Assembly (NCBI GenBank): GCA_002397465.1 | Contig: DHAP01000051.1 | Span: 104,770 to 168,769, forward strand | DNA from: Bacillales bacterium UBA4951 | Lineage (GTDB): Bacteria; Bacillota_I; Bacilli_A; RFN20; CAG-826 | DNA length: 64,000 bases | Reading direction: 5' to 3' | In this document: positions 12,549 to 35,498 of the stretch, piece after piece | Layout of the letters: each line of letters begins with the position of its first letter | How positions within the stretch are numbered: position 1 is the stretch's first letter | The notes under the pieces: model-generated | The model's input: only the letters and a program-made list of their open reading frames with translations | What the model was told of the DNA's origin: nothing | Databases searched by the model: none | Made by a program: the position numbers and the translations under genes

Positions 12549-13739
12549 ATGAGCAAAATCATCGTGCACATCGACTTGAACGCCTTTTTTGCAACCTGTG
12601 AGCAAATCAAGCATCCGGAGTTTGTCGGCAAGCCCGTCATCGTCGCTGGACTTGGCGGACGCGGCGTCGTTTCAACGGCTTCCTACGAGGCTCGCTCCTA
12701 CGGCGTTCATTCAGCCATGCCGACCTATCAAGCCCGTGAGCTTTGTCCCCAAGGAATCTTCGTCGAAGGCGATTATCAATATTATGAAATGATGTCACGC
12801 TCATTTTTCTCCTACATCCGTTCTTTTACCTCGCTGGTCGAGGAGGCTTCTATAGATGAATGCTTCGCCGACATGAGCAAAGCCCTCGCCAAGGAGAAAG
12901 ACCCGTATGCTTTTTTCAAACGGGTTCAGGATGGGCTCTATTCCCAGATGGGGCTGAAGTGCTCCATCGGCGTGGCCCCAAATAAATTCCTTGCCAAAAT
13001 GGGGTCCGACATGAAGAAACCGATGGGCATAACGATAGTCAGAAAAAAAGACATACCTTTTTTGATTTATCCTCTCCCGATTGAATCGTTTTTCGGAATC
13101 GGCAAAAGAACCTCCCCAAAACTAAGGGAAATGGGCATCAACACGATTGGAGACCTCGCCGAGAAATTGAAGGTTGACGATCCATCGCTCCAGGAGACGC
13201 TTGGCAAATTTTACTTCACGGTCAAGGACTGGTGTTTTGGCAATGGAAGCGATGTCATCGACACTTTGCCGTTTGACCCCAAAAGCATCGGCCACAGCAT
13301 CACCTTCCCTAGCGACACCGATGATTATGAGGAGATCAAACAAGAGATATCCCTCCTTTCACACGAAGTCAGCGACGGGGCCAATCAATGCCATAAAAAA
13401 GGGAGAACCGTTCAGTTGGCGGTCAAGGACTCTTCTTTCCACACTCATGACAAATCCATATCTTTCAAAGATCTGACCTCCGACTATTCGGTGATATTTC
13501 AAAAAGCCACCGATCTCTTCGAACATAATTTCCTCGGCATGACCATAAGGCTGGTCGGTGTCACTTTGCAAAACCTCGTCGACCCCAAGGAAGAGACGGT
13601 CCAGATGAGCTTTTGGAACTTCGGAGACTACGAGAAGATGGATGAGACGAAACTCCTCGTCAACGAACTTAACAGAAAGATGAAGACGCCGTCTTTGAAA
13701 CTTGCGAATGAGGTGAAAAAGAAAAATGGAAGTAAATGA
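12549..13739 (+). CDS. dinB: DNA polymerase IV (Y-family)
   Basis: 396 aa. IVHIDLNAFFATCE...GVVSTASYEARSYGVHSAMP are Y-family palm motifs. Confidence 0.9.
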   Translation: MSKIIVHIDLNAFFATCEQIKHPEFVGKPVIVAGLGGRGVVSTASYEARSYGVHSAMPTYQARELCPQGIFVEGDYQYYEMMSRSFFSYIRSFTSLVEEASIDECFADMSKALAKEKDPYAFFKRVQDGLYSQMGLKCSIGVAPNKFLAKMGSDMKKPMGITIVRKKDIPFLIYPLPIESFFGIGKRTSPKLREMGINTIGDLAEKLKVDDPSLQETLGKFYFTVKDWCFGNGSDVIDTLPFDPKSIGHSITFPSDTDDYEEIKQEISLLSHEVSDGANQCHKKGRTVQLAVKDSSFHTHDKSISFKDLTSDYSVIFQKATDLFEHNFLGMTIRLVGVTLQNLVDPKEETVQMSFWNFGDYEKMDETKLLVNELNRKMKTPSLKLANEVKKKNGSK

Positions 13740-14607
13740 GGCCCTGATCCGTTTTTATCAATATCTGGCGGTCGAAAGAGGCGTCGAGCCTCTCACAATC
13801 ATCGACTATCAGCAAGACATGAAGATGTTTTTCAAACGTTTCCCTGAAAAGAAGGACACCTCCGATCTCCATCCTAGCGACGTTGGTGATTTCATGCGCG
13901 TGGAATCCGAGAAAGGCTATTCATCGGCCACGATCCTAAGACGTCTTTCTTCGACGAGAAGCTTCTACCAATTCCTTTCATCAGAAGGCCTGATCGACGA
14001 GGACGTTCCTGATTACGAGGGACCGCGTTCAAGCCACAAACTCCCGATCGTCCTCTCAAAAGAGGAAGTCGACGCCCTATTGGAGGCCCCGGACATGAGC
14101 AATGACGGCGGCATCAGGGACCGGGCCATGCTTGAGGTCATGTATGCCTCAGGACTTCGCGTTTCGGAACTATGCTCTTTGAAGCTAGGAGAGGTCAATC
14201 TCATAAACCATTTGTTGACCATATATGGCAAAGGCAATAAGCAACGTAGTGTTCCCCTCAGCTCTTTCGCCGGCGACTATCTTCAAAAATACCTCGATGG
14301 CCCAAGGGCCCGAAACAAAGGCCGCTCCTCGGAATATGTTTTCCTAAACAGGAACGGGAAGCCCATCAGCCGTGTCTATTTCTTCACTCAGATCAAAAAG
14401 TATGCCAAGAAGGCAGGCATTGAAACGCCCATCTCTCCGCACACCCTCAGACATTGCTTTGCGACCCACCTTCTGGAGAACGGGGCGGATCTTCGAAGCG
14501 TCCAGGAAATGCTCGGGCACAGCAAAATTGCCACGACTCAGATTTACACCCATGTCTCAAGCAAGCGGATCATGAGCGCCTATGATTTGTATAGCAAAAG
14601 AAAATGA
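13726..14607 (+). CDS. xerD: Tyrosine site-specific recombinase XerD-like
   Basis: 293 aa. N-terminal SAM-like domain, C-terminal HTLRHCFATHLLENGADLRSVQEMLGHSKIATTQIYTH (R-H-R-Y catalytic set). It precedes deoB, as B. subtilis ripX does. Confidence 0.85.
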   Translation: MEVNEALIRFYQYLAVERGVEPLTIIDYQQDMKMFFKRFPEKKDTSDLHPSDVGDFMRVESEKGYSSATILRRLSSTRSFYQFLSSEGLIDEDVPDYEGPRSSHKLPIVLSKEEVDALLEAPDMSNDGGIRDRAMLEVMYASGLRVSELCSLKLGEVNLINHLLTIYGKGNKQRSVPLSSFAGDYLQKYLDGPRARNKGRSSEYVFLNRNGKPISRVYFFTQIKKYAKKAGIETPISPHTLRHCFATHLLENGADLRSVQEMLGHSKIATTQIYTHVSSKRIMSAYDLYSKRK

Positions 14608-14646
14608 ATTAAGATATCAGGCGGTAGCAAATCCGCGAGGTCATAT

Positions 14647-15852
14647 ATGAAAAACAAATTTAAGCGTGTCTTCTTGATCGTCGCCGACTCGGCTGGAATC
14701 GGGGAAGAGCCCGATGCCGCCAAATTCGGCGATTGCGGGACTAATACCTGGGTTCACGCGGCTAGTTCCGTCGGCGGGCTCAACGTTCCGGTCATGGAGA
14801 GTTTTGGAGTCGGCGAATTGGCCGATATCCCTGGCGTGAAAGCCGTTCACGATCATCCACATGCCTTTTCGATGAGGCTTAGAGAGATGAGCAACGGCAA
14901 GGATACGATGACTGGCCATTGGGAGATGATGGGCGTTTTGACCACCAAGCCCTTTCAGACTTTCACCGACACCGGATTCCCTGATGATTTGATCAAAGAG
15001 CTCGAAAAAGAGACCGGACACAAGATCATCGGCAATTATTCCTCAAGCGGAACCGAGATTTTGAAGGTCCTTGGCGAAGAACAGATGAAAGAGAATTCTT
15101 TGATCGTCTATACTTCCGCTGACTCCGTCCTTCAGATTGCCGCTCACGAAGAGGTGACTGGAAAAGACGAGCTATACAGATGCTGCGAAATCGCCAGAAA
15201 GCTTTGCATGCGCCCCGAATGGTTCGTCGGGAGGGTTATCGCCCGTCCTTACGTCGGAACGAACAAAGACAATTTCAAGCGCATCGTTGGCGACAGAAGG
15301 GACTATGCCGTCTCTCCTAGTGCCATCACCGTCATGGATATTCTCAAAGACAATGGCTTCATGGTTTCTTGCATCGGCAAAATCAGTGATATCTTCAACG
15401 ATGTCGGTGTGGTCAAAACCGTGCATACCGTCTCAAATGAAGATGGTATGGATAAGACGATAGAACAGGTCAAAAACGACGATTTCACCGGACTTTGCTT
15501 CGTTAATCTCGTTGAATTTGACTCAGAATACGGCCATAGAAGAAATCCTGTCGGATATGCTAGGGCCCTTGAGGCTTTTGATAAGCGTCTCAAAGAGCTT
15601 TTGCCTTTAATGAAAGACGACGATTTATTGATGATCACCGCCGACCATGGCAACGATCCGACCTACAAAGGCACCGATCACACAAGGGAAAAAGTTCCTC
15701 TTTTGATCTATTCGCCATCTCTTATAAATGGCTCGTATATCGATGAGAGAGCCTCCTTCGCCGACATCGGTTCAACTATCTTGAAAGACTTTGATTTATC
15801 TCAGCCTGAAAAGATGATTGGAACCCCGATAGAAGAACTTTTCGGTAAATAA
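14647..15852 (+). CDS. deoB: Phosphopentomutase
   Basis: 401 aa. RVFLIVADSAGIGEEPDA...ITADHGNDPTYKGTDHTRE is typical of DeoB. GAGG SD upstream. Confidence 0.9.
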   Translation: MKNKFKRVFLIVADSAGIGEEPDAAKFGDCGTNTWVHAASSVGGLNVPVMESFGVGELADIPGVKAVHDHPHAFSMRLREMSNGKDTMTGHWEMMGVLTTKPFQTFTDTGFPDDLIKELEKETGHKIIGNYSSSGTEILKVLGEEQMKENSLIVYTSADSVLQIAAHEEVTGKDELYRCCEIARKLCMRPEWFVGRVIARPYVGTNKDNFKRIVGDRRDYAVSPSAITVMDILKDNGFMVSCIGKISDIFNDVGVVKTVHTVSNEDGMDKTIEQVKNDDFTGLCFVNLVEFDSEYGHRRNPVGYARALEAFDKRLKELLPLMKDDDLLMITADHGNDPTYKGTDHTREKVPLLIYSPSLINGSYIDERASFADIGSTILKDFDLSQPEKMIGTPIEELFGK

Positions 15853-15890
15853 TTATCGAAAGTTGATTTCTCGACTTTTCTTCGATGAAT

Positions 15891-15926
15891 AACCTCACCA
15901 AGTCAATTGCTTGCATGAGGTTTTCA
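15891..15926 (+). terminator. Probable deoB terminator (AACCTCA-18-TGAGGTT followed by TTTTC)
   Basis: 7-bp stem with a large loop, then a T-run, 39 nt after the deoB stop. Confidence 0.45.
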
Positions 15927-16019
15927 TTAAGCCTAGACTAAGTAAGGCTTTAGGAGAAACCCAAAGCCTCTGTCAAAAAATTGTAAAGATTTGCGGCACT
16001 CAAAATAAGGAATAAAAAC

Positions 16020-17009
16020 ATGAACAAAAAAACAATGCTGTTTGCGCCTTTGGCCTTGTTGGCCTTGGCCTCTTGCTCAGGAGGATCTTCCTCATCGGAA
16101 GCCGCCACCTCCGAAGAACCGGCTTATCAAGTCAAATGGGTGACTCCGACCGGAACCCCGACCTTGGCTTTCTACAACCAAGGAAGCAACGCCAACTGGG
16201 TGTCATCATCAACTCCGTCGACCGTCGTTGTGCCTTCCTTTCAGACCAATAACTATGACGCGATCGTCTTCGACGGCGTTTCTGGCTTGAACGTCATCAA
16301 TAAGACGGGAGCGAATTACAAACTCGCCAAATGGATCAGCGGTGGCAATTTCTACGTTGTTTCGACTACGCATACATCGACTGACAGCTTTGCGACTGGC
16401 GAAACGATTATGAGCTTCGTCCAAACCGGAAACGCCAGCCGCTCATTCCTTAAGCTAAGCAAGGACGTTTGGAATTGGAACTACGCCGACACCGACATCA
16501 CCTATCAAACAGGCGTGGCTGGCGTCGCCCAAAGCATTCTTCAGAATGGCGGCAACACAGACTATTATGTGGTGGCTGAGCCAGTTTTGACCTCTTTGAA
16601 GAGCAAATTAGGGGATAACCTCCACGTAATCTATGATCTTCAAAGCGAATGGAAGAAAGCCTATAACCAGGAAACGATTCCTGCAGCGGCTTTGTTCATC
16701 AATAATGACAGTTATTCCGCCCATAAAGACTCATTAGATACGTTCATCAGCGACACCCAAAAGAGGATGGATACCGCGATTAGCACGCCATCGACCATCA
16801 AAGCTTCTCTTGATGCCTATGGCAACGACGCGGCCGTTCAAAACAGATTCGGATTCACCTCAAGCCTGGCCGTTTCGCTTCAAAGCTCGAATAAGAATGA
16901 CTTTGGCCTTCTCAAAAGCGGAGTCATCACCGACAATAAAGCCTTCGCAAACGACTTTAACGTAACGCTCGGCGGAACCGCCTTCTCAGATTCTCTCTTC
17001 TTGGAGTAA
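16020..17009 (+). CDS. Putative lipoprotein, probable ABC-transporter substrate-binding protein
   Basis: Signal peptide with lipobox (LALASC), followed by a Ser-rich linker. It lies immediately upstream of an SsuC/TauC-type permease. Family assignment is tentative. Confidence 0.6.
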   Translation: MNKKTMLFAPLALLALASCSGGSSSSEAATSEEPAYQVKWVTPTGTPTLAFYNQGSNANWVSSSTPSTVVVPSFQTNNYDAIVFDGVSGLNVINKTGANYKLAKWISGGNFYVVSTTHTSTDSFATGETIMSFVQTGNASRSFLKLSKDVWNWNYADTDITYQTGVAGVAQSILQNGGNTDYYVVAEPVLTSLKSKLGDNLHVIYDLQSEWKKAYNQETIPAAALFINNDSYSAHKDSLDTFISDTQKRMDTAISTPSTIKASLDAYGNDAAVQNRFGFTSSLAVSLQSSNKNDFGLLKSGVITDNKAFANDFNVTLGGTAFSDSLFLE

Positions 17010-17043
17010 AATTAACCCCGGAAGGGATTCCGAAATTGTAAAG

Positions 17044-17853
17044 ATGAAAAAGAATAAGCGAACCTATTTGATCGAGACCCTTTGCTGGGTCTTAGGGTTC
17101 GCTTTTTTGATTGGCGTCTGGTATCTATGTTCGTACCTTATGTATCGCGTAGGGAACCGTTTGCTTCCTTATCCTCATGAAGTACTGGTTACGCTAGCAA
17201 AGGTCTTGTTTGATCCTAACTATGCCGCGACGACATATTCGGCCATCGGATGGACGCTTGCCCGTTTGCTGATAGGATTCACTATTTCGTTTTTGCTCGG
17301 GATGATTTTAGGGACGATAGGGGGTTTGTTCAAAAACTTCAAACGGTTCATGTCTCCGTTCGTTTCTTTTGCAAAGACTATGCCAACGGCGGCATTTGTG
17401 ATCATCTTGCTTGGAGTCTTCCTCCAATTCAGGGGTTTATCGCCTTATATACCATGCTTCTTGGTATTCATGGTTGCATTCCCGTTGATCTATGAAGCCT
17501 TCGCAAGCGGAATCGAGAACGAAGCCCCAGACGTTAAAGACGCTCTTAAGCTAGATGGCGGCGACAAAAGCCTTTCTGCCATAACCCAGGTCCTATGGCC
17601 AGACAGCGAAAGTTATATAAATTTGTCCATAGCCCAAAGCCTTGGATTATCGATGAAGGTTTCTGTCATGAGCGAGATCTTAACCAATTCGTCAACATCG
17701 CAAGGCGGAATCGGCTGGCTAATAGCTGATTCGAATCTTTATGCATCGATGAAAGAGATAATGGCTTATTCATTGATAGCCGTCTTTATGGTAGCGATAA
17801 TCGATATTCCATTATCGGTTCTAAAAAAGGAAATGAAGAAGAAATTGCAATAG
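17044..17853 (+). CDS. ABC transporter permease (binding-protein-dependent, SsuC/TauC/NitT-like)
   Basis: 269 aa, about 6 TM segments, EAA-type loop (ALKLDGGDKSLSAITQVLWPDS). No ATPase gene is adjacent. Confidence 0.8.
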   Translation: MKKNKRTYLIETLCWVLGFAFLIGVWYLCSYLMYRVGNRLLPYPHEVLVTLAKVLFDPNYAATTYSAIGWTLARLLIGFTISFLLGMILGTIGGLFKNFKRFMSPFVSFAKTMPTAAFVIILLGVFLQFRGLSPYIPCFLVFMVAFPLIYEAFASGIENEAPDVKDALKLDGGDKSLSAITQVLWPDSESYINLSIAQSLGLSMKVSVMSEILTNSSTSQGGIGWLIADSNLYASMKEIMAYSLIAVFMVAIIDIPLSVLKKEMKKKLQ

Positions 17854-17973
17854 TGACAATTTGTATAATTGTAAAGGTAGAAACCAAAGTAGTAGTAAAG
17901 AGGATCGGCCAACTGATCTAAATAAACACAAGGCCAAACAAAGACAATCATAAAGCACGAGCGATTCATAAAC

Positions 17974-17996
17974 AGGATGGTAAACCATCCTTTTTT
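17974..17996 (+). terminator. Rho-independent terminator closing the + strand gene block
   Basis: AGGATGGT-AA-ACCATCCT followed by TTTTTT. Confidence 0.8.
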
Positions 17997-18088
17997 AGAC
18001 TACGGAAAATGAAAGCCTTTGAAAGAAGAGACATGATCAGAAAATGAACATTTGAGTTTGTTAGTTGTTTATTAGTAGATTTTAAAAA

Positions 18089-18097
18089 TGTGGATAA
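18089..18097 (-). promoter_or_regulatory. Perfect DnaA-box 9-mer (TTATCCACA on the - strand)
   Basis: TGTGGATAA read on +. It lies inside TAAAAATGTGGATAACTA, which shares 15 nt with the 28.4-kb copy and 12 nt with the 27.4-kb copy. Confidence 0.5.
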
Positions 18098-18184
18098 CTA
18101 TAGAATTAATGTGCGTAAAACAAAACAAGATTTGTAATTACTATAAATAGAAATGAGCCTTATATCGATAAATATACTTCTTTT

Positions 18185-18212
18185 CGTTAACATAATGGAC
18201 ATTATTCGCAGT
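18185..18212 (-). other. dif-like XerC/XerD recombination site
   Basis: The - strand reads ACTGCGAATAA-TGTCCA-TTATGTTAACG. That is 21/28 identical to E. coli dif (GGTGCGCATAA-TGTATA-TTATGTTAAAT) and 19/28 to B. subtilis dif as I recall it. The XerD arm matches 9/11 in both. It sits at the gene-orientation switch. Confidence 0.65.
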
Positions 18213-18483
18213 CATGTAAAATATAAGAATAAGGGTCCTCCAAATACCGTTTCTTCTTCAAACTACTAACCACTTATGGCGCCTTGCTTCCCTTCGTTAC
18301 TCCTGATTTTCACGTTTTCACGATCTCGAATTTTCTTCCACCGCCCCATTAACTCGCCCTTTATCATGCCTGTTTTCTTCTTGTGCTGCATTCTCTTCTT
18401 CTCACTCTATACTCCTCTCGAAATTGAAGAATGGCATTAATTTCTTTCCTTTACAATATCAATAAACCACTTCTACATTTCAT

Positions 18484-18515
18484 AATAAAAAGCGGCGTTG
18501 TCCTAACACGCCGCT
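18484..18515 (-). terminator. Rho-independent terminator of the yqeG-rsfS operon
   Basis: AGCGGCGT-9-ACGCCGCT, with TTTTTAT following on the - strand, 19 nt after the rsfS stop. Confidence 0.8.
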
Positions 18516-18533
18516 ATTCTTTGACTGCAATAT

Positions 18534-18866
18534 TTAGTGTTTTTTCGCTTCGGCTAGAAGTTTCTCTAACGATATTTCAGCACGCTTTTCTTTAGTGAAT
18601 ATATGGACAACTACAGATCCTTCATCGACTATTACCCATCCGGATTCTGGTTTTCCTTCAATTTGCCTGATATCAATTTTGTTTTTGGCGAACGCTTGAT
18701 CCAAATCGTCGGCAAAAGCTCCTAAGGCTCTTTCGTTTGGGGCGGTCGCTATGACGTAATAGTCACTGAATGGCGTATTTTCCTTAACATCCACCACTTC
18801 GACTTCTTCGGCTTTTCTGTCTTCGAGTTCCTTAACGGCTATCTTGACTGCTTTTGGATAATTCAT
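18534..18866 (-). CDS. rsfS: Ribosomal silencing factor RsfS
   Basis: RsfS-like sequence (AVKELEDRKAEEVEVVDVKENTPFSDYYVIATA). I prefer the ATG at 18866, which has an ATGA overlap with the upstream stop and a GGAGAG SD, over the ORF-track start at 18899. Confidence 0.85.
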   Translation of the reverse strand: MNYPKAVKIAVKELEDRKAEEVEVVDVKENTPFSDYYVIATAPNERALGAFADDLDQAFAKNKIDIRQIEGKPESGWVIVDEGSVVVHIFTKEKRAEISLEKLLAEAKKH

Positions 18867-19969
18867 TTCTTTTTCTCTCCTAGATATAGACGTCGGCATT
18901 CTTCTGAAAGCGGATTGTCTTCTGTCATGCCGGCTTTCTTAAGGTATTTCGTGTTCTCCTTTAGAACATAGATGAAACCAATGTAATAGTTTTTTAAGCA
19001 CCTGGCTATCATTTTCGACGAATCATAGCCTCTGGATGGCTCGATCTTGTCGCTTTCGTAGATGATTTTCGTCAATGGAGGCATATGGGCTTTGCCAGTG
19101 CAATGGTACTTGATTGCATCCAATATGTCTTCTTCCTGAACTCCAAATTCCTTTTTAGCGAGGTAGCATCCAGTGAATTGATGAAAACACCAATCAGGAT
19201 AACCTGTGTATTCGGAGAAGTTCTCCTCCATTATCTTTTTGGTGGATGCGGCATCTAGGTGCTTTCCTAAATCATGGAGCAATCCGGCGATATAGGCGTG
19301 TTCCGGATTAAGGATATCGTTTCGTTTGGCAATCGCGTAAGCCAGATGAGCGACGCTGAGACTATGAACCAGGCGTTTTCCGCTCACAAACTTCGTGAGC
19401 TTCTCCATATAGTAAAGGCGATGGCTTTCAATATAGTCGAGGACTTTGGATGGGACATCGATGCTTTTAAGCTCTCTGACGGATGTCGAGGAAACGCTTC
19501 CTGATCCCCCATAGTTCAAGGGAATCATGTGAAAGCGGTCGGCTATGGCTTTGTCGATTTTGACATCTGGTCGCTCGACATAAACGACTTGGGCGCAGGA
19601 AGCTATCTCGGCTGGGTTTTGCCATTTGTCAAATTGGTTGGCCTGATCGGCCCCAATGAGCAAATACAGTTGATGATTCGGGTATTTGTCCTGGAAATGA
19701 TGGATGGTGTCTATCGAATAGTTCACTTCTGAATCGGAATTGATTTCAAAAAGATCGATTGAGAAATCAGCGCTGCCATTCTCTTCTAAGGCAAGCTTAA
19801 GCATTGCCAAACGGTCATCAGGGCTGGCGGAAGGCTCCTTCCACCTCGGGGATTTGGCCGGAACGAAAACGACCTCCGCGTTCAGCCTTAGGGACGCAGC
19901 CCTGGCTAGACGGAGATGTCCGTTGTGGACCGGGTCAAATGAGCCGCCGTAGATGACAATCTTTTCCAT
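18863..19969 (-). CDS. nadD: Fusion protein: nicotinate-nucleotide adenylyltransferase NadD + HD-domain YqeK
   Basis: N-terminus has GGSFDPVHNGHL (the nucleotidyltransferase HxGH motif). C-terminus has LVHSLSVAHL...GLLHDLGK (the YqeK-type HD domain). It is one uninterrupted 368-aa ORF. Confidence 0.85.
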   Translation of the reverse strand: MEKIVIYGGSFDPVHNGHLRLARAASLRLNAEVVFVPAKSPRWKEPSASPDDRLAMLKLALEENGSADFSIDLFEINSDSEVNYSIDTIHHFQDKYPNHQLYLLIGADQANQFDKWQNPAEIASCAQVVYVERPDVKIDKAIADRFHMIPLNYGGSGSVSSTSVRELKSIDVPSKVLDYIESHRLYYMEKLTKFVSGKRLVHSLSVAHLAYAIAKRNDILNPEHAYIAGLLHDLGKHLDAASTKKIMEENFSEYTGYPDWCFHQFTGCYLAKKEFGVQEEDILDAIKYHCTGKAHMPPLTKIIYESDKIEPSRGYDSSKMIARCLKNYYIGFIYVLKENTKYLKKAGMTEDNPLSEECRRLYLGEKKK

Positions 19970-19970
19970 A

Positions 19971-20261
19971 TCAATACAAAACTATGGAGGGGTTCTTTTC
20001 CCTTGCCTTGTAAATGACGATGATGTGGCCGATGATCTGAACTAATTCACTCTTGGTTTTCTTGGTGATGTCATCGGACAATTCTTTGATGTCCTCATTC
20101 GAGTTGGCCAAGACTTTCACCTTGATGAGCTCATGGGCTTTAAGGGCGTTGCTGACGCTTTGGACGAGAGTCTCATCGACTTCGCCCTTCCCGATGTTCA
20201 CGGATGGCTCAAGATTATTGGCCAGTCCTTTTAATAATGCTTTGTTTTTTGGTGTTAACAT
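19971..20261 (-). CDS. yhbY: RNA-binding protein YhbY (CRM domain)
   Basis: 96 aa. LKGLANNLEPSVNIGKGEVDETLVQSV...HELIKVKV is typical of YhbY/YqeI. It occupies the operon position between yqeH and nadD. Confidence 0.8.
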   Translation of the reverse strand: MLTPKNKALLKGLANNLEPSVNIGKGEVDETLVQSVSNALKAHELIKVKVLANSNEDIKELSDDITKKTKSELVQIIGHIIVIYKAREKNPSIVLY

Positions 20262-21418
20262 TTTATTTTCACTTTCGCCCTTGAGGCATAGGCTCCGATT
20301 CCTTTCGGAACGTATATTCTAAACGTTTGTTTGTCGCCTTGGAAATTAATCCATCCGAGTCCGGCGATGCCGATGTCCCTGCTTCCTTCTTCCTCAACAG
20401 CGATATCAAAGACGTCGAAGTCCGTCAACTTTGAGGCGATGATGTTCGAACTTGGGCTCAGAGCGCCGCTTTCAAGGCACTTGACGAAATATTCGTCCAT
20501 GTCTTTTCTCTCCCCGACTTTCTTAAGGGAGACGTCCGATGAGAAGAAACAGTTGATTTGGCAATGCTTCTTTTCCTCATAGCCTATGAGATCTATTCTC
20601 GCTAGGCCTCCGATGAAGATTGAATCGTCTTTGTGAAGAATGATCTTTCTCAGACGAATCGGCTCGGATGGGAATATCTGCTTTTGCAAGGTGAAGTCGG
20701 CTTTTCCCATGAAGGAATTGTCGATTCCGGTCCCTGGGGTGTCATAGATCATCGACGAGGAGTCCAATGGTATCTGCATGGTGCGAAGATTGGTTCCCGG
20801 ATAATTGCCTGTGACGATGCTTCTAAGGGAGTTATTCGTGAAACCATGCAAGAAACTCGAAAGGAAGAATGACTTTCCGCTTCCGGAGGCTCCGATGATG
20901 TAGACGTCATGCCTTCTTCGTTTTTCCTCTAGTAGTTTGTAGATGTCTTTCATGTCGCTGACTGAATGGAGCGACATCAAGACGACATCATCTTTGACTA
21001 CTTTTAATCCAGCCACACGGCAACGATGCGCCACATATTCTTTTAGATCATCGTCATTGGCTTCTTCTGGCATCAAATCGCGCTTATTGGCGATGACCAT
21101 GATGGGAAGGCGCTGAATGAGACTTGTGAGTTTGGAGTTGAATGAGCATTCGAAGGAAAAGAGGTCAAGGAGATAGACGATCGTGGCCTCGGTGGCTTGG
21201 GCGTCTAAAAGCATCGTGAGGAAATCGTTGGAGACCGAAGCCTCTTGCGGAGCGATGTTGTAACGGGCCTCGTTGTAGCATTTCTCGCAGAAGAGTATCT
21301 CGTTCAGCGGCGCTTCAGAAAGAATCTCCTGGCTGATGTAGCCTTCTTTGCCCTTCTTCTTGTCTTGAAGAACGGCGCCACAGTTGTAGCAGCGTCTCAC
21401 GACGTTCATCTTGCTCAT
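20255..21418 (-). CDS. yqeH: Ribosome-biogenesis GTPase YqeH (circularly permuted)
   Basis: N-terminal CxxC...CxxC zinc knuckle. G4 (NKRDL) precedes G1 (GASGSGKS). The ATG at 21418 has a GGGAGG SD and an ATGA overlap with the yqeG stop. Confidence 0.85.
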   Translation of the reverse strand: MSKMNVVRRCYNCGAVLQDKKKGKEGYISQEILSEAPLNEILFCEKCYNEARYNIAPQEASVSNDFLTMLLDAQATEATIVYLLDLFSFECSFNSKLTSLIQRLPIMVIANKRDLMPEEANDDDLKEYVAHRCRVAGLKVVKDDVVLMSLHSVSDMKDIYKLLEEKRRRHDVYIIGASGSGKSFFLSSFLHGFTNNSLRSIVTGNYPGTNLRTMQIPLDSSSMIYDTPGTGIDNSFMGKADFTLQKQIFPSEPIRLRKIILHKDDSIFIGGLARIDLIGYEEKKHCQINCFFSSDVSLKKVGERKDMDEYFVKCLESGALSPSSNIIASKLTDFDVFDIAVEEEGSRDIGIAGLGWINFQGDKQTFRIYVPKGIGAYASRAKVKIKC

Positions 21419-21939
21419 AAGATTTCCTCCCATGGCTTGGCAAGCCCCTTTTCGACGATCTCGCGGCGTTTTCTTTTCTCAAACATCCGATTGAACGAAG
21501 TGTAAGGCGGATCGACCTCGCTGACTGGCTTGGTCAGGATCACTCTGATGCCGGCTCCGTTTCCAGAGATGACATCGGTCATTATCTGATCGCCGACCAT
21601 CAGCGTCTCGCTGATTGGAAAGCCCTCTTTTTTGATGAGCTTTTTCAGTTTGAATGAGAAAGGCTTCAATAATCCCGATAAGGCTTCTACGCCGAGTTCT
21701 TTGGCGTAGCGGCGCACTCTTTTCGAGGTGTTGTTGGAGGCTATGTAGAACTTGATGCCCCTTTCCTTCAACGATTTCACGTAAGCGATCGTCCGTGAAG
21801 AAGGGTCTGGCGTCTTGTAGGAATCAAGGGTGTTATCAAGGTCGCAAAGCAGATACTTGACCCCGATTCGCACAAAGAAGTCCGGACTGATAGAGAAGAT
21901 GTTCTCGGCCAAAGCGAAGGGGACATATCTCTTATTCAT
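21415..21939 (-). CDS. yqeG: HAD-IIIA family phosphatase YqeG
   Basis: 174 aa. LLCDLDNTL (the HAD motif I) and VGDQIMTDV. First gene of the yqeG-yqeH operon. Confidence 0.8.
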   Translation of the reverse strand: MNKRYVPFALAENIFSISPDFFVRIGVKYLLCDLDNTLDSYKTPDPSSRTIAYVKSLKERGIKFYIASNNTSKRVRRYAKELGVEALSGLLKPFSFKLKKLIKKEGFPISETLMVGDQIMTDVISGNGAGIRVILTKPVSEVDPPYTSFNRMFEKRKRREIVEKGLAKPWEEIL

Positions 21940-21974
21940 AATAATAGTCTACGATACCCGTGACAAACAGGCAC

Positions 21975-24578
21975 TCACTTTTTCTCATCTGAGGGGTCAA
22001 CGTCAAAGAGCGAGATCTGTTCAAAGGAATTTTCCTTTTCAGCTTCTTCTTGCTCTTTCGGCTCTTCTTTTACAGGCGGAGCGAAAGACGGGGTCGAGGA
22101 GTTGATGAGCAAAGTGTCTTCTTCGCTCACTTCCGCGATTCTCGCTTTGAAAGGGAAAGACTCAGGACGTTTGACGTATTTCTCCATCGGAGTCAGATAG
22201 AAATCCTGGAAAGTGACATCGATTCTGCTGGCGTCCTCAAGCACGGCATCATAGCTGAACGGGGCGGCCTTGTCGCCGATCTTCCCGACGTAAACGAGCC
22301 TATGCGGTTCCTTCTGAAACATGTTGAAGATGACCGTGGCCTTTGAAAGCCTTTGGCTTCTCTCGATATGCGATGTGTCAAAGACTCTGGTGGCTCCACG
22401 GTTGGTGATAAGGGCGATCTTGCTCTTCTCATCGGGCAAGAAACTAAGCAAGCCAGCGCATTCGCTGCCTTTGAAGCTGGCGGCTTTGATGCCTCCGGTC
22501 TTCGGATTGGTGACGATGATCTCATTCTCGTTATAGAAGACGGCCTTGCCATCGACGGAAGCGAGGAAGAGATCGCTGTTGCCGCTTGTCTCGGCGATGG
22601 AGACCAACTCATCGTCATTGACGAGTTTGAGGGCGCAGATCGGTTTGCTTCTTCTCACGACGGGGAAACTGGAGAGATTGATACGCTTGATAAGACCTTT
22701 TTTGCTCAAAAGGGCGACGTAGAGGTCATTTCTGAAATTCGAGACCACAAAGCCACCGATGAGTTTTTCCTCAGGGGCAATCGCAACCAAGAGGTTGGCG
22801 TGGAAGCCTTCGTCGTTCCACTTCGTCTCTTTGACTTCGTTGACGGGTATATAGAGATAATTCCCGCGATTTGTGAACAAAAGAAGGAAATCGGTCGTCG
22901 AGCAAAGGACATTGAAAACGAATGCGTCCCCTGATTTGATACCAGGTTTGGCCCCGTTTTGTCCACCAGAGCCTTTCCAGCTCTTGACGCTCGAACGTTT
23001 GATGTATCCGTCTCTCGTCCCAACCACATAAACGTCTTCTTGGGCGATGAGGGCGCGCTTATCGATTTGAGTGTTGGCTTGGGCTTCCTCGGCCGGTCGA
23101 ATCTCGGTGAGACGCTTCCCAGAATACTGTTTGGCTATGGCGTTGAGGTCAGCGATGATGAGGTCTTCCCTCAGTGACTGTTCTTTCAAGAGCCCTTCAA
23201 GGATCTTTATTTCAGCCTCCAAGGCTTCTTTTTCTTTTTCCAAGATCGTGACATCGGTATGTGAAAGCTTATAAAGAGGCATCATGACGATGGCCTCAGA
23301 CTGTTCTGGGGTAAAGCCGTATTTGCTCTGAAGGTTGATTTTGGAATCAGCCTTGTCTTTTGAGGCTTTGATGACCTGAATGACTTCGTCAAGGATCGAC
23401 TGGGCTTTGATCAAGCCAGTGACGATCGAAAGACGGGCTTTGTCTTTGGAAAAGCGATAATTGCTTCTTCTTGTGATGACATCGAGCTGATGCTGGATGT
23501 AGCAATCGCAATAAGTGATAAGGTCCATCGAACGAGGATGCCCATCGACGATGGCCATCATGTTCGCGGTGTAATTGGTCTGAAGCGGGGTCTTGCTCAT
23601 CAAATAAGCCAAGATAGCTTCCGGCTTCGCATCGTCTTTGAGGTCTATTGCGATCCTCAGTCCGTCTCTATCGGTTTCATCCCTGACCTCGTCGATGCCG
23701 GGAATCGTCTTGTCATGCCTAATTTTGTCGATTGATTTTACGAGTTCGGATTTGTTGACCTGGTAAGGGATCTCGCGAACGATTATCTGGGTGGTGCCAT
23801 CTTCGTTGACGCTGATTTCGGTCCGGCTGGCGACGGTTACGCGGCCATGTCCTGTCCTATAGATGTCCTTAAGTCCTTCCGACTCATAGATGATGCCGCC
23901 AGTCGGGAAATCCGGGCCTGGGACGTAACGAATGAGATCATCGACGTCGCAAGAAGGATGTTTGATCCTGTAAGTGATGGCTTGGGTTATCTCTTTGAGG
24001 TTATGAGGCGGGATCGAGGTCGCGATGCCGACGGCGATTCCTTCGCTGCCATTGCATAAAAGATTCGGGAAACGGGCTGGCAGAACCTCAGGCTCTTTCA
24101 ACGTGTCATCGAAAGTGAGGTTCATTTTGACCGTGTCTTCATCGATGTCACGCAAAAGCTCGTTTGACAAAGAAGAGAGTCTGGCTTCGGTGTAACGATA
24201 GGCGGCTGGGCCGTCTCCGTCGATTGATCCGTTGTTGCCCTGGAAGTCGATCAATGGGTATCTATACGCCCAGTTTTGGGACATATGGACAAGAGCTAAG
24301 TAAATCGAAGAGTCGCCGTGTGGGTGGTATTTGCCCATGACGTCGCCGACGATGTGGGCGCATTTCTTGGTTGGCTTGTCGATGGTGTTTCCGGTATTCC
24401 ACATATCGAAAAGAATGCGGCGTTGAACCGGCTTGAGCCCATCTCTGGCATCAGGGATGGCGCGGTCTTGGATGACGTCTCTTGCGTATGAGGCATATTT
24501 GTCGCCCATGATCGTATCGAGGGTGTCGATCTCGATGTTCTCTTTGATTGGGGTTATGTTCTTTTCTTTCTTCGCCAT
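21975..24578 (-). CDS. parC: DNA topoisomerase IV subunit A (type IIA, GyrA/ParC family)
   Basis: 867 aa. Active-site region (AAYRYTEARL) and beta-pinwheel C-terminal domain. Called ParC rather than GyrA because of the plsY-parE-parC arrangement typical of Bacillota. Confidence 0.8.
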   Translation of the reverse strand: MAKKEKNITPIKENIEIDTLDTIMGDKYASYARDVIQDRAIPDARDGLKPVQRRILFDMWNTGNTIDKPTKKCAHIVGDVMGKYHPHGDSSIYLALVHMSQNWAYRYPLIDFQGNNGSIDGDGPAAYRYTEARLSSLSNELLRDIDEDTVKMNLTFDDTLKEPEVLPARFPNLLCNGSEGIAVGIATSIPPHNLKEITQAITYRIKHPSCDVDDLIRYVPGPDFPTGGIIYESEGLKDIYRTGHGRVTVASRTEISVNEDGTTQIIVREIPYQVNKSELVKSIDKIRHDKTIPGIDEVRDETDRDGLRIAIDLKDDAKPEAILAYLMSKTPLQTNYTANMMAIVDGHPRSMDLITYCDCYIQHQLDVITRRSNYRFSKDKARLSIVTGLIKAQSILDEVIQVIKASKDKADSKINLQSKYGFTPEQSEAIVMMPLYKLSHTDVTILEKEKEALEAEIKILEGLLKEQSLREDLIIADLNAIAKQYSGKRLTEIRPAEEAQANTQIDKRALIAQEDVYVVGTRDGYIKRSSVKSWKGSGGQNGAKPGIKSGDAFVFNVLCSTTDFLLLFTNRGNYLYIPVNEVKETKWNDEGFHANLLVAIAPEEKLIGGFVVSNFRNDLYVALLSKKGLIKRINLSSFPVVRRSKPICALKLVNDDELVSIAETSGNSDLFLASVDGKAVFYNENEIIVTNPKTGGIKAASFKGSECAGLLSFLPDEKSKIALITNRGATRVFDTSHIERSQRLSKATVIFNMFQKEPHRLVYVGKIGDKAAPFSYDAVLEDASRIDVTFQDFYLTPMEKYVKRPESFPFKARIAEVSEEDTLLINSSTPSFAPPVKEEPKEQEEAEKENSFEQISLFDVDPSDEKK

Positions 24579-24580
24579 CG

Positions 24581-26530
24581 TTATTTGTCCTTAAGCTGAT
24601 CTTCAAAGGTGTCGACCAAGTCGAAATCGACGTTCTCTTGGATCCAGTTCCATCTTTGGGATGAGTCTTTGCCCATCAAGACGCTGATACGCTTCTCCAC
24701 CACCAACGGGTCGTCAATTTTCACGCGAAGGAGGACACGGCTCTTTTTGTTCATGGTCGTGGCCGCCAATTGATCGGCGTTCATTTCGCCAAGTCCTTTA
24801 TAACGGTTGATGCCGTACCCGGGCCCGATTTTCTCTTTGGCGGGGTTGAGGTCTTCTTCCCTCCAGCAATAGACATGCTGTTTGGGGTCGCTCTTACGAT
24901 AAACCCTATATAAAGGCGGCTGAGCGATGTAGACCATGCCTTTGTCGATCAAAGGCTTCATGTAGTTATAAAAGAAAGTCAGCAAAAGAGTCTGAATGTG
25001 TGAGCCATCGGTATCAGCATCGGTCATGATGATGATCTTGCCATAATGGCTTTCCTCGACGTCGAAGTCCTGTCCGACCCCGGCTCCGATTGTTTGGATG
25101 AGCGTGCTCATCTCAAGGTTCTCAATCATGCGCTGCATGCTGACGGTATCGGTGTTCAAAGGCTTGCCACGAAGCGGCAAAATAGCCTGATGGAGTCTGT
25201 CTCTGCCAGTCTTGGCAGAACCACCGGCGGAATCGCCCTCGACGATGAAGAGCTCGTTTTCTTTGTAGTCCTTGCTTTGGGCGGCGGCCAATTTGTCGGA
25301 AATCATCAAGTCGACTTTCTTGGTCTTGTTGCCCCTGGCCGCCTCTTTGGCTTTTCTGGCGGCTTCACGCGCGTCTTTGGAAGCTTGGCATTTATGGATG
25401 ATGTCCAAAGCAAAGTCTTTGTGCTCGTTTAGATAATATGAGAGATAAGAATCGAGGATGTTTCCGACAACCGGGCCGGCTTCAGGGCTTCCGAGCTTTC
25501 CTTTGGTCTGGCCTTCGTATTCAAGTTTGTCTTCAGGGATCTTCACGGAAATGATGGCAGTCAGGCCTTCACGGATGTCGGCGCCGTCTATCGACTGATT
25601 CGGTTTGATGACTTCATTGAGCAGCGCCCAGTTGTTAAGGCATTTGGTCAAGGCGCCTTTAAAACCGACCTCGTGGGTGCCGCCATCAGCGGTCCTCACG
25701 TCGTTGGCGTAGCTATAGATGTTTTCGTTGTAGTCGCTATTGCACCAGGCCATGGCGATTTCGACTTGGATAGAGTTAAGCTTGTCGCTGAAATCGATGA
25801 TCTCGCCGATCGGAGTCTTGTTTTGAATCATGCTGGCCACGTATTCGCGAAGGCCATGCTCAGTGTAGAACTCATGGGAGTTCCCGGTGTTTTCGTCTTT
25901 CAGGATGAAATGGACGCCGGTGAGAAGATAGCTCTTCTCTTCCAGGCGGTTATAAATGGTGTCCCAAGAGAATTTGACGTTGGGGAAAATCTTCGGATCG
26001 GGTTTGAAACGAACAGTGGTTCCGTGCTTTTTGGTGTTTCCCAAAACGGTAAGCGGAGTTTCAAGCGCCCCACCGTTATGGAACTTTATTTCATAGGCCT
26101 TGCCTTCACGGTAAACAGTGACGGAAAGGCTCTCCGACAAAGCATTGGTTACCGTGGCGCCGACGCCATGAAGACCAGCTGAGGTCTGATATATCTTGCT
26201 GTTGAACTTTCCGCCTGAATGCAAGGTGGTGTAAATGAGCTGGACTGCTGGGACTTTGAGCTTTGGATGGATGTCGACAGGAACGCCACGCCCCTCATCT
26301 TCGACCTGAATAGATCCGTCTTTGAACATCGTGACGGTGATTTTGTCTCCGAATCCGTTGACGGCTTCGTCGACCGCGTTATCGACTATTTCCCAAACCA
26401 AATGGTGAAGGCCAGTAAGGTTTGTGCTGCCGATGTACATGCCAGGGCGTTTTCTGACGCCTTCGAGTTCGCTTAAAACCTCGATGTCTTTGGCTGTGTA
26501 GTTCTCTTCTGCTTGCTCAATGTCTATCAT
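24581..26530 (-). CDS. parE: DNA topoisomerase IV subunit B (GyrB/ParE family)
   Basis: 649 aa. GHKL ATPase (GLHHLVWEIVDNAVDE), TOPRIM (EGDSAGGSA...PLRGK). Divergent from plsY. Confidence 0.85.
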   Translation of the reverse strand: MIDIEQAEENYTAKDIEVLSELEGVRKRPGMYIGSTNLTGLHHLVWEIVDNAVDEAVNGFGDKITVTMFKDGSIQVEDEGRGVPVDIHPKLKVPAVQLIYTTLHSGGKFNSKIYQTSAGLHGVGATVTNALSESLSVTVYREGKAYEIKFHNGGALETPLTVLGNTKKHGTTVRFKPDPKIFPNVKFSWDTIYNRLEEKSYLLTGVHFILKDENTGNSHEFYTEHGLREYVASMIQNKTPIGEIIDFSDKLNSIQVEIAMAWCNSDYNENIYSYANDVRTADGGTHEVGFKGALTKCLNNWALLNEVIKPNQSIDGADIREGLTAIISVKIPEDKLEYEGQTKGKLGSPEAGPVVGNILDSYLSYYLNEHKDFALDIIHKCQASKDAREAARKAKEAARGNKTKKVDLMISDKLAAAQSKDYKENELFIVEGDSAGGSAKTGRDRLHQAILPLRGKPLNTDTVSMQRMIENLEMSTLIQTIGAGVGQDFDVEESHYGKIIIMTDADTDGSHIQTLLLTFFYNYMKPLIDKGMVYIAQPPLYRVYRKSDPKQHVYCWREEDLNPAKEKIGPGYGINRYKGLGEMNADQLAATTMNKKSRVLLRVKIDDPLVVEKRISVLMGKDSSQRWNWIQENVDFDLVDTFEDQLKDK

Positions 26531-26562
26531 GATTTGTTGGGGTTGGTTCTATTCGGTTTGTA

Positions 26563-26571
26563 ATTATAACA
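26563..26571 (-). promoter_or_regulatory. Extended -10 element (TGTTATAAT) of a probable parE-parC promoter
   Basis: Read on the - strand, 32 nt upstream of the parE ATG. It lies inside the inverted repeat GTTTGT-N7-ACAAAC (26556-26574). No SD in the leader. Confidence 0.45.
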
Positions 26572-26594
26572 AACTTGGATTGAAAAACGTAGCG

Positions 26595-26611
26595 CTATTA
26601 TACGATAATAG
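26595..26611. repeat. Inverted repeat CTATTAT-ACG-ATAATAG in the parE/plsY divergent region
   Basis: 7-bp perfect arms. It overlaps a GATAAT that has a TTGAAA 18 nt upstream, a plausible plsY promoter. Candidate operator. Confidence 0.4.
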
Positions 26612-26637
26612 AAGCCTGAAATCGAAGGAATATCTCC

Positions 26638-27366
26638 ATGAACCCAATTGTAGGAAACATTCTCGTTGCGGTAAGCTGCTTTCTTTTTGGTTACCTTATC
26701 GGTGGGATTCCGAATGGCGTGATCATCGGACGGATATTTTTCGGCAAAGATCCTAGAGATTATGGGAGCCACAATTCAGGCGGCACCAATTCAGGCCGTG
26801 TTTTCGGCAAATGGATAGGTTTTCTCGTCATCTTTCTCGACATGATGAAGGCGGTAATAGCTTTCTATGCCGTCTGGGCTGTCATTCGTTTCTCGTCGCT
26901 TCAAACCACTACGCCTTTATGGGATGACGGAGTGTTCTATATTTGGCTGACGGGCCTCGGTGTTTCAGTCGGCCATTGCTGGTCTCCTTATCTCAATTTC
27001 AAAGGTGGCAAGACCGTGGCTTGTTTCATGGGTTTGGTCGGCGGAACTTCCTGGCTTGGCTTCATCGTTTGCTGCTTATCGTTCTTCCCGTTCCTCTTCC
27101 AAAAGAAAATCGTCTCCCGCTCGTCTTTATTCTCTGGGGCGATCATCGTGGCTTTCGAATGGGTGATGTATCTCATCGTTGCTTTGAGCGGATGGGATGG
27201 GACCATCCTGATGTGGAACTTTGGGGCTGGAGGCGGCCTCTTCTTTGGCTGGGAAAGCGCAAGCGTCGTCACAGCAGTCTACCTTATTATGGTTTTAAGA
27301 CATTCCCAGAATATCAAACGCCTCAAGGCCGGAACCGAGTCAAAACTTGACTGGAGTGGTAAATAA
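26638..27366 (+). CDS. plsY: Glycerol-3-phosphate acyltransferase PlsY
   Basis: 242 aa polytopic membrane protein. GSHNSGGTNSGRVFGKW matches the PlsY SGNxGxTN motif region. Confidence 0.9.
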   Translation: MNPIVGNILVAVSCFLFGYLIGGIPNGVIIGRIFFGKDPRDYGSHNSGGTNSGRVFGKWIGFLVIFLDMMKAVIAFYAVWAVIRFSSLQTTTPLWDDGVFYIWLTGLGVSVGHCWSPYLNFKGGKTVACFMGLVGGTSWLGFIVCCLSFFPFLFQKKIVSRSSLFSGAIIVAFEWVMYLIVALSGWDGTILMWNFGAGGGLFFGWESASVVTAVYLIMVLRHSQNIKRLKAGTESKLDWSGK

Positions 27367-27396
27367 TTAGTAGTTATTTGTAACATTATTTTCGAC

Positions 27397-27405
27397 TGTG
27401 GATAA
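27397..27405 (-). promoter_or_regulatory. Perfect DnaA-box 9-mer (TTATCCACA on the - strand)
   Basis: TGTGGATAACTA read on +, in the AT-rich convergent gap between plsY and the yneF-like gene. Confidence 0.5.
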
Positions 27406-27515
27406 CTAGATAAATCAAAATTATATGACATTTTAATTCGATGATGCCTATGTTTTTGATTGACGTTTTTGTAATTGTCCGTTCAATTCTCTAAAATTGA
27501 CGTAAAAATTATCCC

Positions 27516-27544
27516 AATAAAAAAGCCCTCGATTTGGAGGGCTT
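27516..27544 (-). terminator. Rho-independent terminator of the efp/yneF-like unit
   Basis: AAGCCCTC-GATTTG-GAGGGCTT, with TTTTTTATT following on the - strand. Confidence 0.75.
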
Positions 27545-27570
27545 ATAAACTTGTTAAGGCAGCACTGCTG

Positions 27571-27792
27571 CTACATGTTTTTCTTCATCGAATTCATGAC
27601 GGCACGGATTTGAGCCTCTGATGGCTTACGCCCCATTTGGCTGAACATCGCACGGATCATGGCTTCATTGACTGGAGGGTTCTTTTCCATCTCTCTCTTC
27701 ATAAGAGCTCTCGCTCCGAAGAATCCGATGGCTAAGCCAGCGATAAGACAAAGAATTAGATAGAGGACAAATTGCCAAACCTCGATGGTCAT
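27571..27792 (-). CDS. Small membrane protein, UPF0154 (YneF-like)
   Basis: 73 aa. One N-terminal TM segment, then KNPPVNEAMIRAMFSQMGRKPSEAQI, closely resembling B. subtilis YneF as I recall it. Confidence 0.8.
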   Translation of the reverse strand: MTIEVWQFVLYLILCLIAGLAIGFFGARALMKREMEKNPPVNEAMIRAMFSQMGRKPSEAQIRAVMNSMKKNM

Positions 27793-27794
27793 GG

Positions 27795-28352
27795 TTAGGC
27801 CCTCTTATCGTATTTGCCTGTCGTGGTGTCCACTAAGACTTTTTCACCAGCGTTGATGAAGAGCGGAATTCTGATCTTGAGTCCAGTTTCCAAGGTGGCA
27901 TCTTTCGATCCGCCGTTTGTGACTGTGTCTCCACGGACACCAGGTTCGCACTCGGTGACGGTCAAGGCAACTTTGGCTGGAAGCTCGACTCCGAGGATCT
28001 CATCTTCATACGAGACGATGATGACCTCACAGTTCGGGGCGAGATATGGAATCTCGTGAACAAGGTTCTGCTTCGGAAGCTCGACTTGATCGTATGTTTT
28101 CGGATCCATAAAGACCAAAGTGGTTCCTGAATCATAGAGATACTGCATGGTTCTCTTTGTAATCGAAACGATTTGAACATCGTACCCACTGTTACGGGCT
28201 ATCTCGATGACGGCACCGGTGCGGATGTTCTTAACTTTGACTTTGGCCACCATCTTACGCATGGCGGTCTTGTTGAGCAAAATATCAAGGACTTGATACA
28301 GGGTATCCTCGTCTTCAAAGTAATTGCCCGGGCGTAATTCTGTAACGTTCAT
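27795..28352 (-). CDS. efp: Elongation factor P
   Basis: 185 aa. Typical EF-P N-terminus (ELRPGNYFEDEDTLYQVLD...KVKVKNIRTG). AAGGAG SD upstream. Confidence 0.95.
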   Translation of the reverse strand: MNVTELRPGNYFEDEDTLYQVLDILLNKTAMRKMVAKVKVKNIRTGAVIEIARNSGYDVQIVSITKRTMQYLYDSGTTLVFMDPKTYDQVELPKQNLVHEIPYLAPNCEVIIVSYEDEILGVELPAKVALTVTECEPGVRGDTVTNGGSKDATLETGLKIRIPLFINAGEKVLVDTTTGKYDKRA

Positions 28353-28405
28353 ACTTAAAAATCTCCTTTACTACGCGGTTGGTATTCTATACCAATGCCG
28401 CTTGA

Positions 28406-28414
28406 TTATCCACA
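28406..28414 (+). promoter_or_regulatory. Perfect DnaA-box 9-mer (TTATCCACA) upstream of efp
   Basis: The - strand reads TAAAAATGTGGATAA, identical over 15 nt to the 18.09-kb copy. It lies next to the palindrome TGGTAT-TCT-ATACCA (28379-28393). Confidence 0.5.
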
Positions 28415-28493
28415 TTTTTAGGCCTTCAAGTCCGATGGGCGCTTAAAAAACGGCCATTTGCCGCTTCCGAGTCTCAATAAAGTCGATGGACTA

Positions 28494-29117: not shown

Positions 29118-29121
29118 CAGG

Positions 29122-29148
29122 AATAAAAAAATAAGGCCGAAGCCTTAT
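29122..29148 (-). terminator. Hairpin plus T-run directly after rpmG
   Basis: ATAAGGC-CGAA-GCCTTAT overlaps the rpmG stop, and TTTTTTTATT follows on the - strand. The T-run ends only 5 nt before the MBL-hydrolase ATG, so it may act as an attenuator rather than a full stop. Confidence 0.55.
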
Positions 29149-29306
29149 TTAGCCTCCTTATGGAGCGTCATCTTGTTGCAGCGTGGGCAGAACTTCATGA
29201 TTTCCATTTTGTTAGGATGCGACTTCTTGTTGCGGGTGGAGATGTAATTCTGTTCGCCGCAGATAGAGCACTTTAAGGTAATGTTATCGCGTTTGGATTT
29301 GGCCAT
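29145..29306 (-). CDS. rpmG: 50S ribosomal protein L33
   Basis: 53-aa ORF below the ORF-track cutoff, translated by hand: MAKSKRDNITLKCSICGEQNYISTRNKKSHPNKMEIMKFCPRCNKMTLHKEAK. It has the CxxC...CxxC zinc ribbon typical of L33. Confidence 0.9.
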   Translation of the reverse strand: MAKSKRDNITLKCSICGEQNYISTRNKKSHPNKMEIMKFCPRCNKMTLHKEAK

Positions 29307-29389
29307 TGTTTTTCACACTTCTTTCTTTTAGCGGTTGTAATCCTAGCATAGACTCCGCCAATTATCTACAAGAATTCGTGGAAATGCGT

Positions 29390-29395: not shown

Positions 29396-29404
29396 GCTTT
29401 TCAT

Positions 29405-35490: not shown

Positions 35491-35498
35491 GGTGTTTG

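Follow-up and report, generated by a model that had tools for sequence, protein, structure and literature searches.

A 28-bp element in the gap at which two converging gene arrays meet is most probably the dif site of this chromosome, the sequence at which Xer recombinases would resolve chromosome dimers at the replication terminus. The reading of this element as a dif-like site, proposed in an earlier note made from the DNA, was supported by its architecture, by conservation that is confined to the 28 bp, by its position, and by a nearby XerD protein that is catalytically intact. (Here, the window is the whole 64-kb stretch of DNA that was analyzed.) The site is very probably an ordinary example of a well-known kind of dif, found in a poorly studied lineage, with the biology that would be expected of it. 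It would fix the inferred replication terminus and the dimer resolution site for a widespread group of uncultured Bacilli with small genomes, whose MAGs from rumen, gut, and digesters are variously labelled Bacilli, Erysipelotrichaceae, Ca. Enteromonas, Coprobacillus, or Mollicutes. The consensus derived for this clade should be useful for orienting and checking MAG assemblies and for replichore-aware analyses, and the site itself is a natural target for marker excision or integration tools.

The 28-mer has the 11-6-11 architecture of a dif core site

Direct reading of the - strand gave ACTGCGAATAATGTCCATTATGTTAACG, which divides into two 11-bp arms and a 6-bp center as ACTGCGAATAA TGTCCA TTATGTTAACG (Table 1) and is the sequence that the earlier note had placed there. 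The identities that it had listed were reproduced on recomputation: 21/28 to E. coli dif (arms, 8/11 and 9/11; center, 4/6), the sequence of which is given by Carnoy and Roten (PMC2731167), and 19/28 to B. subtilis dif (right arm, 9/11), the sequence of which appears verbatim in Kono et al. (PMC3025954). The inner palindrome ATAA-N6-TTAT was seen to be intact, as had been claimed. Five of the six pairs between positions 7 to 12 and positions 17 to 22 form, and the published pairing criterion for dif is more than four pairs (PMC3025954). The right arm matches the clade consensus at 10 of 11 positions and is nearly invariant among the 24 aligned sites described below. A role of the TGTCCA center in strand exchange is predicted from the XerCD-dif paradigm. 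The sole within-species polymorphism inside the site is at position 7 of the left arm (18206), which is A or G between strains and which is also the variable arm position across the clade.

TABLE 1 Coordinates, within the window, of the candidate dif site and associated features
Feature	Position	Strand	Remarks
dif core site (candidate), 11-6-11	18185..18212	-	PWM score, 32.6 bits; clade consensus, 25/28; ODN3, 22/28
Left (XerC-type) arm ACTGCGAATAA	18202..18212	-	9/11 to clade consensus ACTTCGCATAA; 9/11 to XerC arm of ODN3
Central region TGTCCA	18196..18201	-	6 bp between arms; predicted strand exchange region
Right (XerD-type) arm TTATGTTAACG	18185..18195	-	9/11 to XerD arms of E. coli, B. 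subtilis, and ODN3
xerD ortholog, 293-aa tyrosine recombinase	13726..14607	+	TIGR02225 XerD, 325 bits (cutoff, 329.6)
Noncoding gap where converging gene arrays meet	17854..18533		680 bp; inferred replication terminus
Intrinsic terminator closing left-arm genes	17974..17996	+	7-bp stem AGGATGG/CCATCCT, then TTTTTT
Intrinsic terminator after rsfS, closing right-arm genes	~18481..18515	-	Stem GCGGCGUG/ACGCCGC, then UUUUUAUUAU

The match is far beyond chance and the site is single-copy in the DNA examined

We first asked whether intergenic DNA this AT-rich could have yielded the likeness to the classical sites by chance. The 21/28 identity to E. coli dif exceeded the maximum (20) reached in 200 random windows and is by itself not decisive at genome scale, while the 19/28 identity to B. 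subtilis dif is unexceptional, at least 19 matches being reached in 34 of 200 random windows (17%). A stronger test used a position weight matrix (PWM), which was built from 16 distinct sites, all of other species; the species were picked through homology of the recombinase protein and not through a DNA pattern. With this PWM, the site scored 32.6 bits; the runner-up position in the 64-kb window scored 6.4, and none of 12 random genomes of 1.63 Mb gave a score above 18.9. The 28-mer is far beyond chance. This score, together with an orthologous site that is kept in dozens of species while its flanks are not, refuted the chance reading, to which we assign a negligible probability.

Copy number was examined in the window, in related loci, and in a genome collection, and the site was single-copy in all of this DNA. 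Each 20-kb relative locus held one site (runner-up, 13.3 bits or less). A scan of the genome collection with a degenerate pattern yielded at least 119 loci, with one match per contig among the matches listed. Neither allele of the exact 28-mer had a further copy in the collection. Multiple equal copies had been named beforehand as evidence against a dif site; the exact 28-mer was unique in the window and in the genome collection searched. Separately, two related loci (L014, 13818 to 13845; L015, 9233 to 9260) contain a second, inverted, partial dif-like sequence, GATTATGTTAACC, which consists of an exact XerD arm and a degenerate left arm and is located inside an ABC permease gene, ~900 bp from the real site.

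The site is intergenic and lies where gene orientation flips

The + strand genes of the window end at 17853 and the - strand genes start at 18534. To the left of the site, 14 of 14 genes are on the + strand (recJ', relA, hisS, aspS, tkt, nusB, xseAB, dxs, dinB, xerD, deoB, and genes for a lipoprotein and an ABC permease); to the right, 37 of 41 (about 90%) are on the - strand, including rsfS, nadD-yqeK, yhbY, yqeH, yqeG, parC, parE, efp, dnaG, sigA, era, recO, dnaK/dnaJ, lepA, and fmt. The gene content of the window is housekeeping only. The three positional features that the earlier note had described, a noncoding site, facing terminators, and a flip of gene orientation, were all borne out. 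No ORF of at least 40 aa was found across the site. The + strand terminator, 120 bp past the stop codon of the ABC permease gene, and the - strand terminator (-16.6 kcal/mol; z = -3.15) flank the 28-mer and face it. The site was intergenic and exactly at the switch from + to - strand genes both in the window and in 20 of 20 relatives examined.

A conserved, imperfectly palindromic intergenic element at a terminus, overlapped on the - strand by a weak promoter-like match, could instead be bound by some other protein, either as an operator for the flanking operons or as a Ter-like fork arrest sequence, and resemble dif only outwardly. However, the flanking genes end rather than start at the site, and the terminators face it. 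The distance from the site to the neighboring gene ranges from 24 to 1,518 bp among relatives, which would be unexpected for an operator. Moreover, both 11-bp arms match experimentally defined XerC/XerD arms of other phyla at 9 to 10 of 11 positions. We consider such a site for another protein to be very improbable.

Several other signals in the window were considered and set aside. A perfect DnaA box, TTATCCACA, is present at 18089 to 18097 (- strand), ~90 bp from dif, but an origin reading was rejected because it is a single box at a point where genes converge; the whole window holds three perfect DnaA boxes, which are unclustered. The KOPS/SRS motifs GAGAAGGG and GGGNAGGG were too rare in the window to serve as evidence of a terminus. 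The L. lactis KOPS motif GAAGAAG occurred 53 times pointing toward the site and 10 times pointing away from it, a count confounded by the purine bias of the coding strand. A search of the window against Rfam gave no match. Elsewhere on the right arm, two tandem genes of the sigma-70 family (342 and 468 aa) were observed at 34462 to 36905, downstream of dnaG.

Raw GC skew is inverted by codon usage

The earlier note had proposed that a true dif should coincide with the GC skew shift point. The sign of the skew does switch at the site, as proposed, but its direction, - and then +, is the reverse of that at a textbook terminus. The skew at 4-fold sites was -0.40 to -0.43 (~-0.41) and was equal in co-oriented genes and in the four head-on genes; therefore, the raw skew merely tracks the gene strand. 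Third codon positions on the coding strand are rich in C, with a strong preference for C-ending over G-ending codons, and because these codons make the coding (hence leading) strand C-rich, the raw skew is inverted. This analysis by codon position ruled out raw GC skew as a test of the terminus in either direction. In intergenic DNA (4.9 kb only), the skew was +0.046 to the left of the site and -0.051 to its right, as at a textbook terminus, and in lower-GC relatives the raw skew runs from + to - across the sites (e.g., +0.17/-0.20 in L026). A GC skew check would mislead in this species, and C-biased codon usage can give raw GC skew the wrong direction.

Conservation in relatives is confined to the 28 bp

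MAGs of uncultured Bacilli, sampled from rumen, gut, and digesters, encode relatives of the recombinase at 42 to 68% identity. A dif-like 28-mer was present downstream of the recombinase gene in 23 of 26 related loci, at a distance of 0.15 to 4.5 kb and on the other strand, an orientation shared with the window; the remaining three loci are short contigs. In the collection scan, among the matches listed, a Xer ortholog was found in the same 8-kb block at at least 45 loci, with a window-like arrangement in 44 of 45. The same scan also recovered the dif sites of Xanthomonadales, Acinetobacter, and other classical XerC/XerD organisms.

Twenty-four sites with 30-nt flanks, from genomes whose Xer proteins are only 42 to 68% identical, were aligned for information content. 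The 28 bp contained 1.60 bits per column, compared with 0.53 to 0.55 in the flanks. The arms ACTTCGCATAAT and TTATGTTAAC were nearly invariant while most spacer positions varied, and the resulting clade consensus is ACTTCGCATAAT-NNCYN-TTATGTTAAC. Judged from this alignment, the element shows the pattern typical of a recombinase core site, with conserved arms and a variable spacer.

Gene order was conserved across the clade on both sides of the site, as xseA-dxs-dinB-xerD-(deoB-lipoprotein-permease)-dif-rsfS-nadD-yhbY-yqeH-yqeG-parC-parE, with one to three unrelated genes between xerD and dif in many genomes. As far as gene order indicates, the terminus region of this clade is unusually stable. 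Many assemblies represent the species of the window itself, one of them a single record of 1.63 Mb (GCA_022482565.1). We also observed that xerD, dif, and parC-parE (topoisomerase IV) are located within ~8 to 12 kb of each other, at 13726 to 26530 in the window and in L002 to L026, with both dif flanks conserved clade-wide. The idea that deoB directly after xerD is the classical Bacilli order was dropped, as this order was not found in Anoxybacillus, Priestia, or other loci.

A XerD ortholog is encoded near the site

The protein encoded 3.6 kb upstream of the site scored highest with the XerD model (Table 1); its scores with other models were 289 bits for XerC, 129.6 for XerS (cutoff, 267), and 226.7 for archaeal XerA (cutoff, 220). 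The best solved structure was E. coli XerD 1A0P (E = 7e-53), compared with 5e-39 for archaeal XerA and 8e-23 for XerH, and the residues of the catalytic R-K-H-R-H-Y hexad all aligned with those of 1A0P. A XerS/XerH-type system with a different site had been named beforehand as grounds for doubt; what was found is a 28-mer with a 6-bp center and a 293-aa protein of XerD type. A protein database search with the recombinase returned, at 60% identity or more, orthologs only. Among structures, chain 14 of PDB 9i5v (401 aa), which is labelled "Ribosome-associated translation inhibitor RaiA," gave a full-length Xer match (E = 1e-41); this label looks wrong, or else the chain is a fusion.

The arrangement raises the question of a partner. 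In the 23 plus at least 44 relatives, the site is downstream of xerD in a fixed orientation at 0.15 to 7 kb, and no second Xer gene was found in the 64-kb window or, by tblastn, within 10 kb of xerD in 26 relatives. Both results would fit a dif that is served by the neighboring XerD-type recombinase alone, that is, a single-recombinase system with its gene in cis and a canonical 28-bp site. A review deems xer-dif adjacency a possible hallmark of single-recombinase systems and notes that RipX, the XerD protein of B. subtilis, is capable of binding both half-sites in vitro (PMC5357621), and Kono et al. place xerD usually near the origin and not near dif (PMC3025954). In addition, many Mollicutes lack XerC and XerD (PMC10507103), and the window protein is above the cutoff of the archaeal XerA model. 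However, gene order beyond the site is conserved to the same extent, so the adjacency of xerD and dif needs no special explanation, and the argument that a xer-dif module implies a single recombinase was rejected on this ground. The same difference between the left and right arms recurs in all species, and the arms match the respective XerC and XerD arms of organisms that use two recombinases; a wide distribution and an ancestral origin in Firmicutes have been inferred for XerC and XerD (PMC8136486); and the search for a second Xer gene covered ~4% of the genome. On balance, service by XerD alone appears unlikely.

With two recombinases, as we prefer, dimer resolution would proceed as follows. 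Homologous recombination would join sister chromosomes into a dimer, and the two copies of the site would meet at the closing septum, presumably through a translocase of the FtsK/SpoIIIE type (no FtsK/SpoIIIE gene was found in the 64-kb window). The XerD ortholog would bind the right arm, TTATGTTAACG, and the left arm, ACTGCGAATAA, would be bound by a partner, most likely a XerC/CodV-type paralog encoded elsewhere and less likely a second XerD. Strand exchange across the 6-bp TGTCCA would then restore two monomers. Binding, cleavage, the identity of the partner, and dependence on a translocase are predicted here by analogy with the Xer family.

Comparison with known Xer systems

The XerC/XerD-dif system of E. 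coli and the CodV/RipX-dif system of B. subtilis have the same 11-6-11 architecture and a nearly identical XerD arm, TTATGTTAA; like theirs, the site described here is intergenic and probably at the convergence of replichores, and it is single-copy in the DNA examined and accompanied by a XerD ortholog with a full catalytic hexad. The left arm and the center account for the differences from these two dif sequences (21/28 and 19/28 overall). Unlike in the classical systems, xerD is 3.6 kb from the site, whereas xerD genes as a rule lie close to the origin (PMC3025954); neither the 64-kb window nor the loci of relatives yielded a partner XerC/CodV; and the raw GC skew around the site has its sign reversed by codon usage.

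The closest experimentally bound sequence is the A. baumannii dif/pdif oligonucleotide ODN3 (ACTTCGTATAATCGCCATTATGTTAAAT; PMC7399989), which is identical to the window site at 22 of 28 positions and to the clade consensus at 24 of 28, with 10/11 in each arm. ODN3 is bound cooperatively by purified XerC and XerD (PMC7399989). Acinetobacter belongs to a different phylum and has many copies of the sequence on plasmids, where they flank resistance modules, in contrast to the one chromosomal copy found here at the probable terminus.

XerS/difSL of Streptococci and Lactococci and XerH/difH of Helicobacter and Campylobacter resemble the present case in that the recombinase gene is linked clade-wide to the site, which here is at the probable terminus. 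Their sites are atypical (~31 bp or longer, with an enlarged center and weak similarity to canonical dif), whereas a canonical 28-mer with a 6-bp center is found here. XerS and XerH are ~356 to 362 aa in length, and the window recombinase, at 293 aa, is of XerD type, with 130 bits against a cutoff of 267 for XerS and a structure match of 8e-23 for XerH against 7e-53 for XerD. In contrast to those modules, in which the gene directly adjoins the site, 0.15 to 7 kb separates the two here, and synteny extends equally over both flanks. The archaeal XerA/dif system likewise has a canonical-looking 28-bp dif that sometimes adjoins the recombinase gene, and the window protein is above the XerA cutoff; however, the organism here is bacterial, the XerD model scores far higher (325 bits), and the closest structure is E. 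coli XerD.

Dif-like 28-mers were also observed in other settings. In three unrelated taxa, Acetobacterium wieringae (L132), a Bacteroidales MAG (L133), and a Bryobacteraceae MAG (L145), a canonical sequence of this kind adjoins two tandem Xer-like genes, whose products are 27 to 31% identical to the window XerD; these may represent mobile elements or pairs of recombinases linked to dif. Among IMG/VR viral contigs, 52 (L223 to L274) carried canonical dif-like 28-mers, most of which have the proteobacterial TTATGTTAAAT arm. None of these contigs carried homologs of window genes, and none was related to the clade; their sites fit Xer-exploiting elements or prophage-host junctions. Two contigs (L176 and L197) of the Lentisphaeria MAG JAFTUS01 share a near-identical dif-like site, ACTTCGCATAATATCAATTATGTTAT, and could be two replicons, an integrated element, or the result of misbinning.

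A diverged tract between strains begins close to the site

Assemblies of the species fell into two haplotypes, A (the window, L202, L203, and L206) and B (L200, L201, L204, L205, L207, L208, and the 1.63-Mb record). Outside one tract, A and B differ at 0.106% of positions (22 differences in 20.8 kb); within the tract, from 18206 to 32565 (14.4 kb), there are 357 differences (2.4%). The tract opens with a SNP at 18206, the seventh position of the XerC arm, which lies 5 bp from the center; the 349 bp to the left of this SNP, including the XerD arm and the dif center, contain no differences. The spacing of tract SNPs has a median of 21 nt, with only 3 of 356 gaps reaching 300 nt. Given the SNP-free 349 bp and the dense SNPs of the tract, the left end of the tract therefore lies within ~150 bp of the dif center. 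The probability that a random endpoint would be that close to dif in the 36 kb compared is roughly 1 to 2%, for what is one event, common to all type B assemblies; all other pairs of loci are too diverged for a repeat of this comparison.

The tract could reflect coincidence, terminal recombination, or a Xer reaction (integration or the resolution of a heterodimer) with one subsequent homologous crossover. It is conceivable, if rather doubtful, that dif here acts as a portal for the exchange of chromosomal DNA between strains. A portal of this kind would involve either Xer integration of a foreign, dif-bearing circular fragment or resolution of a heterodimer of two diverged chromosomes, in each case with one homologous crossover ~14 kb away.

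Between dif and rsfS, the segment from 18345 to 18446 is hypervariable, with 20 SNPs in 100 bp between A and B (~8 times the tract average). This patch overlaps a Lys/Arg-rich ORF of 41 aa (18266 to 18391, - strand) that is open in both alleles.
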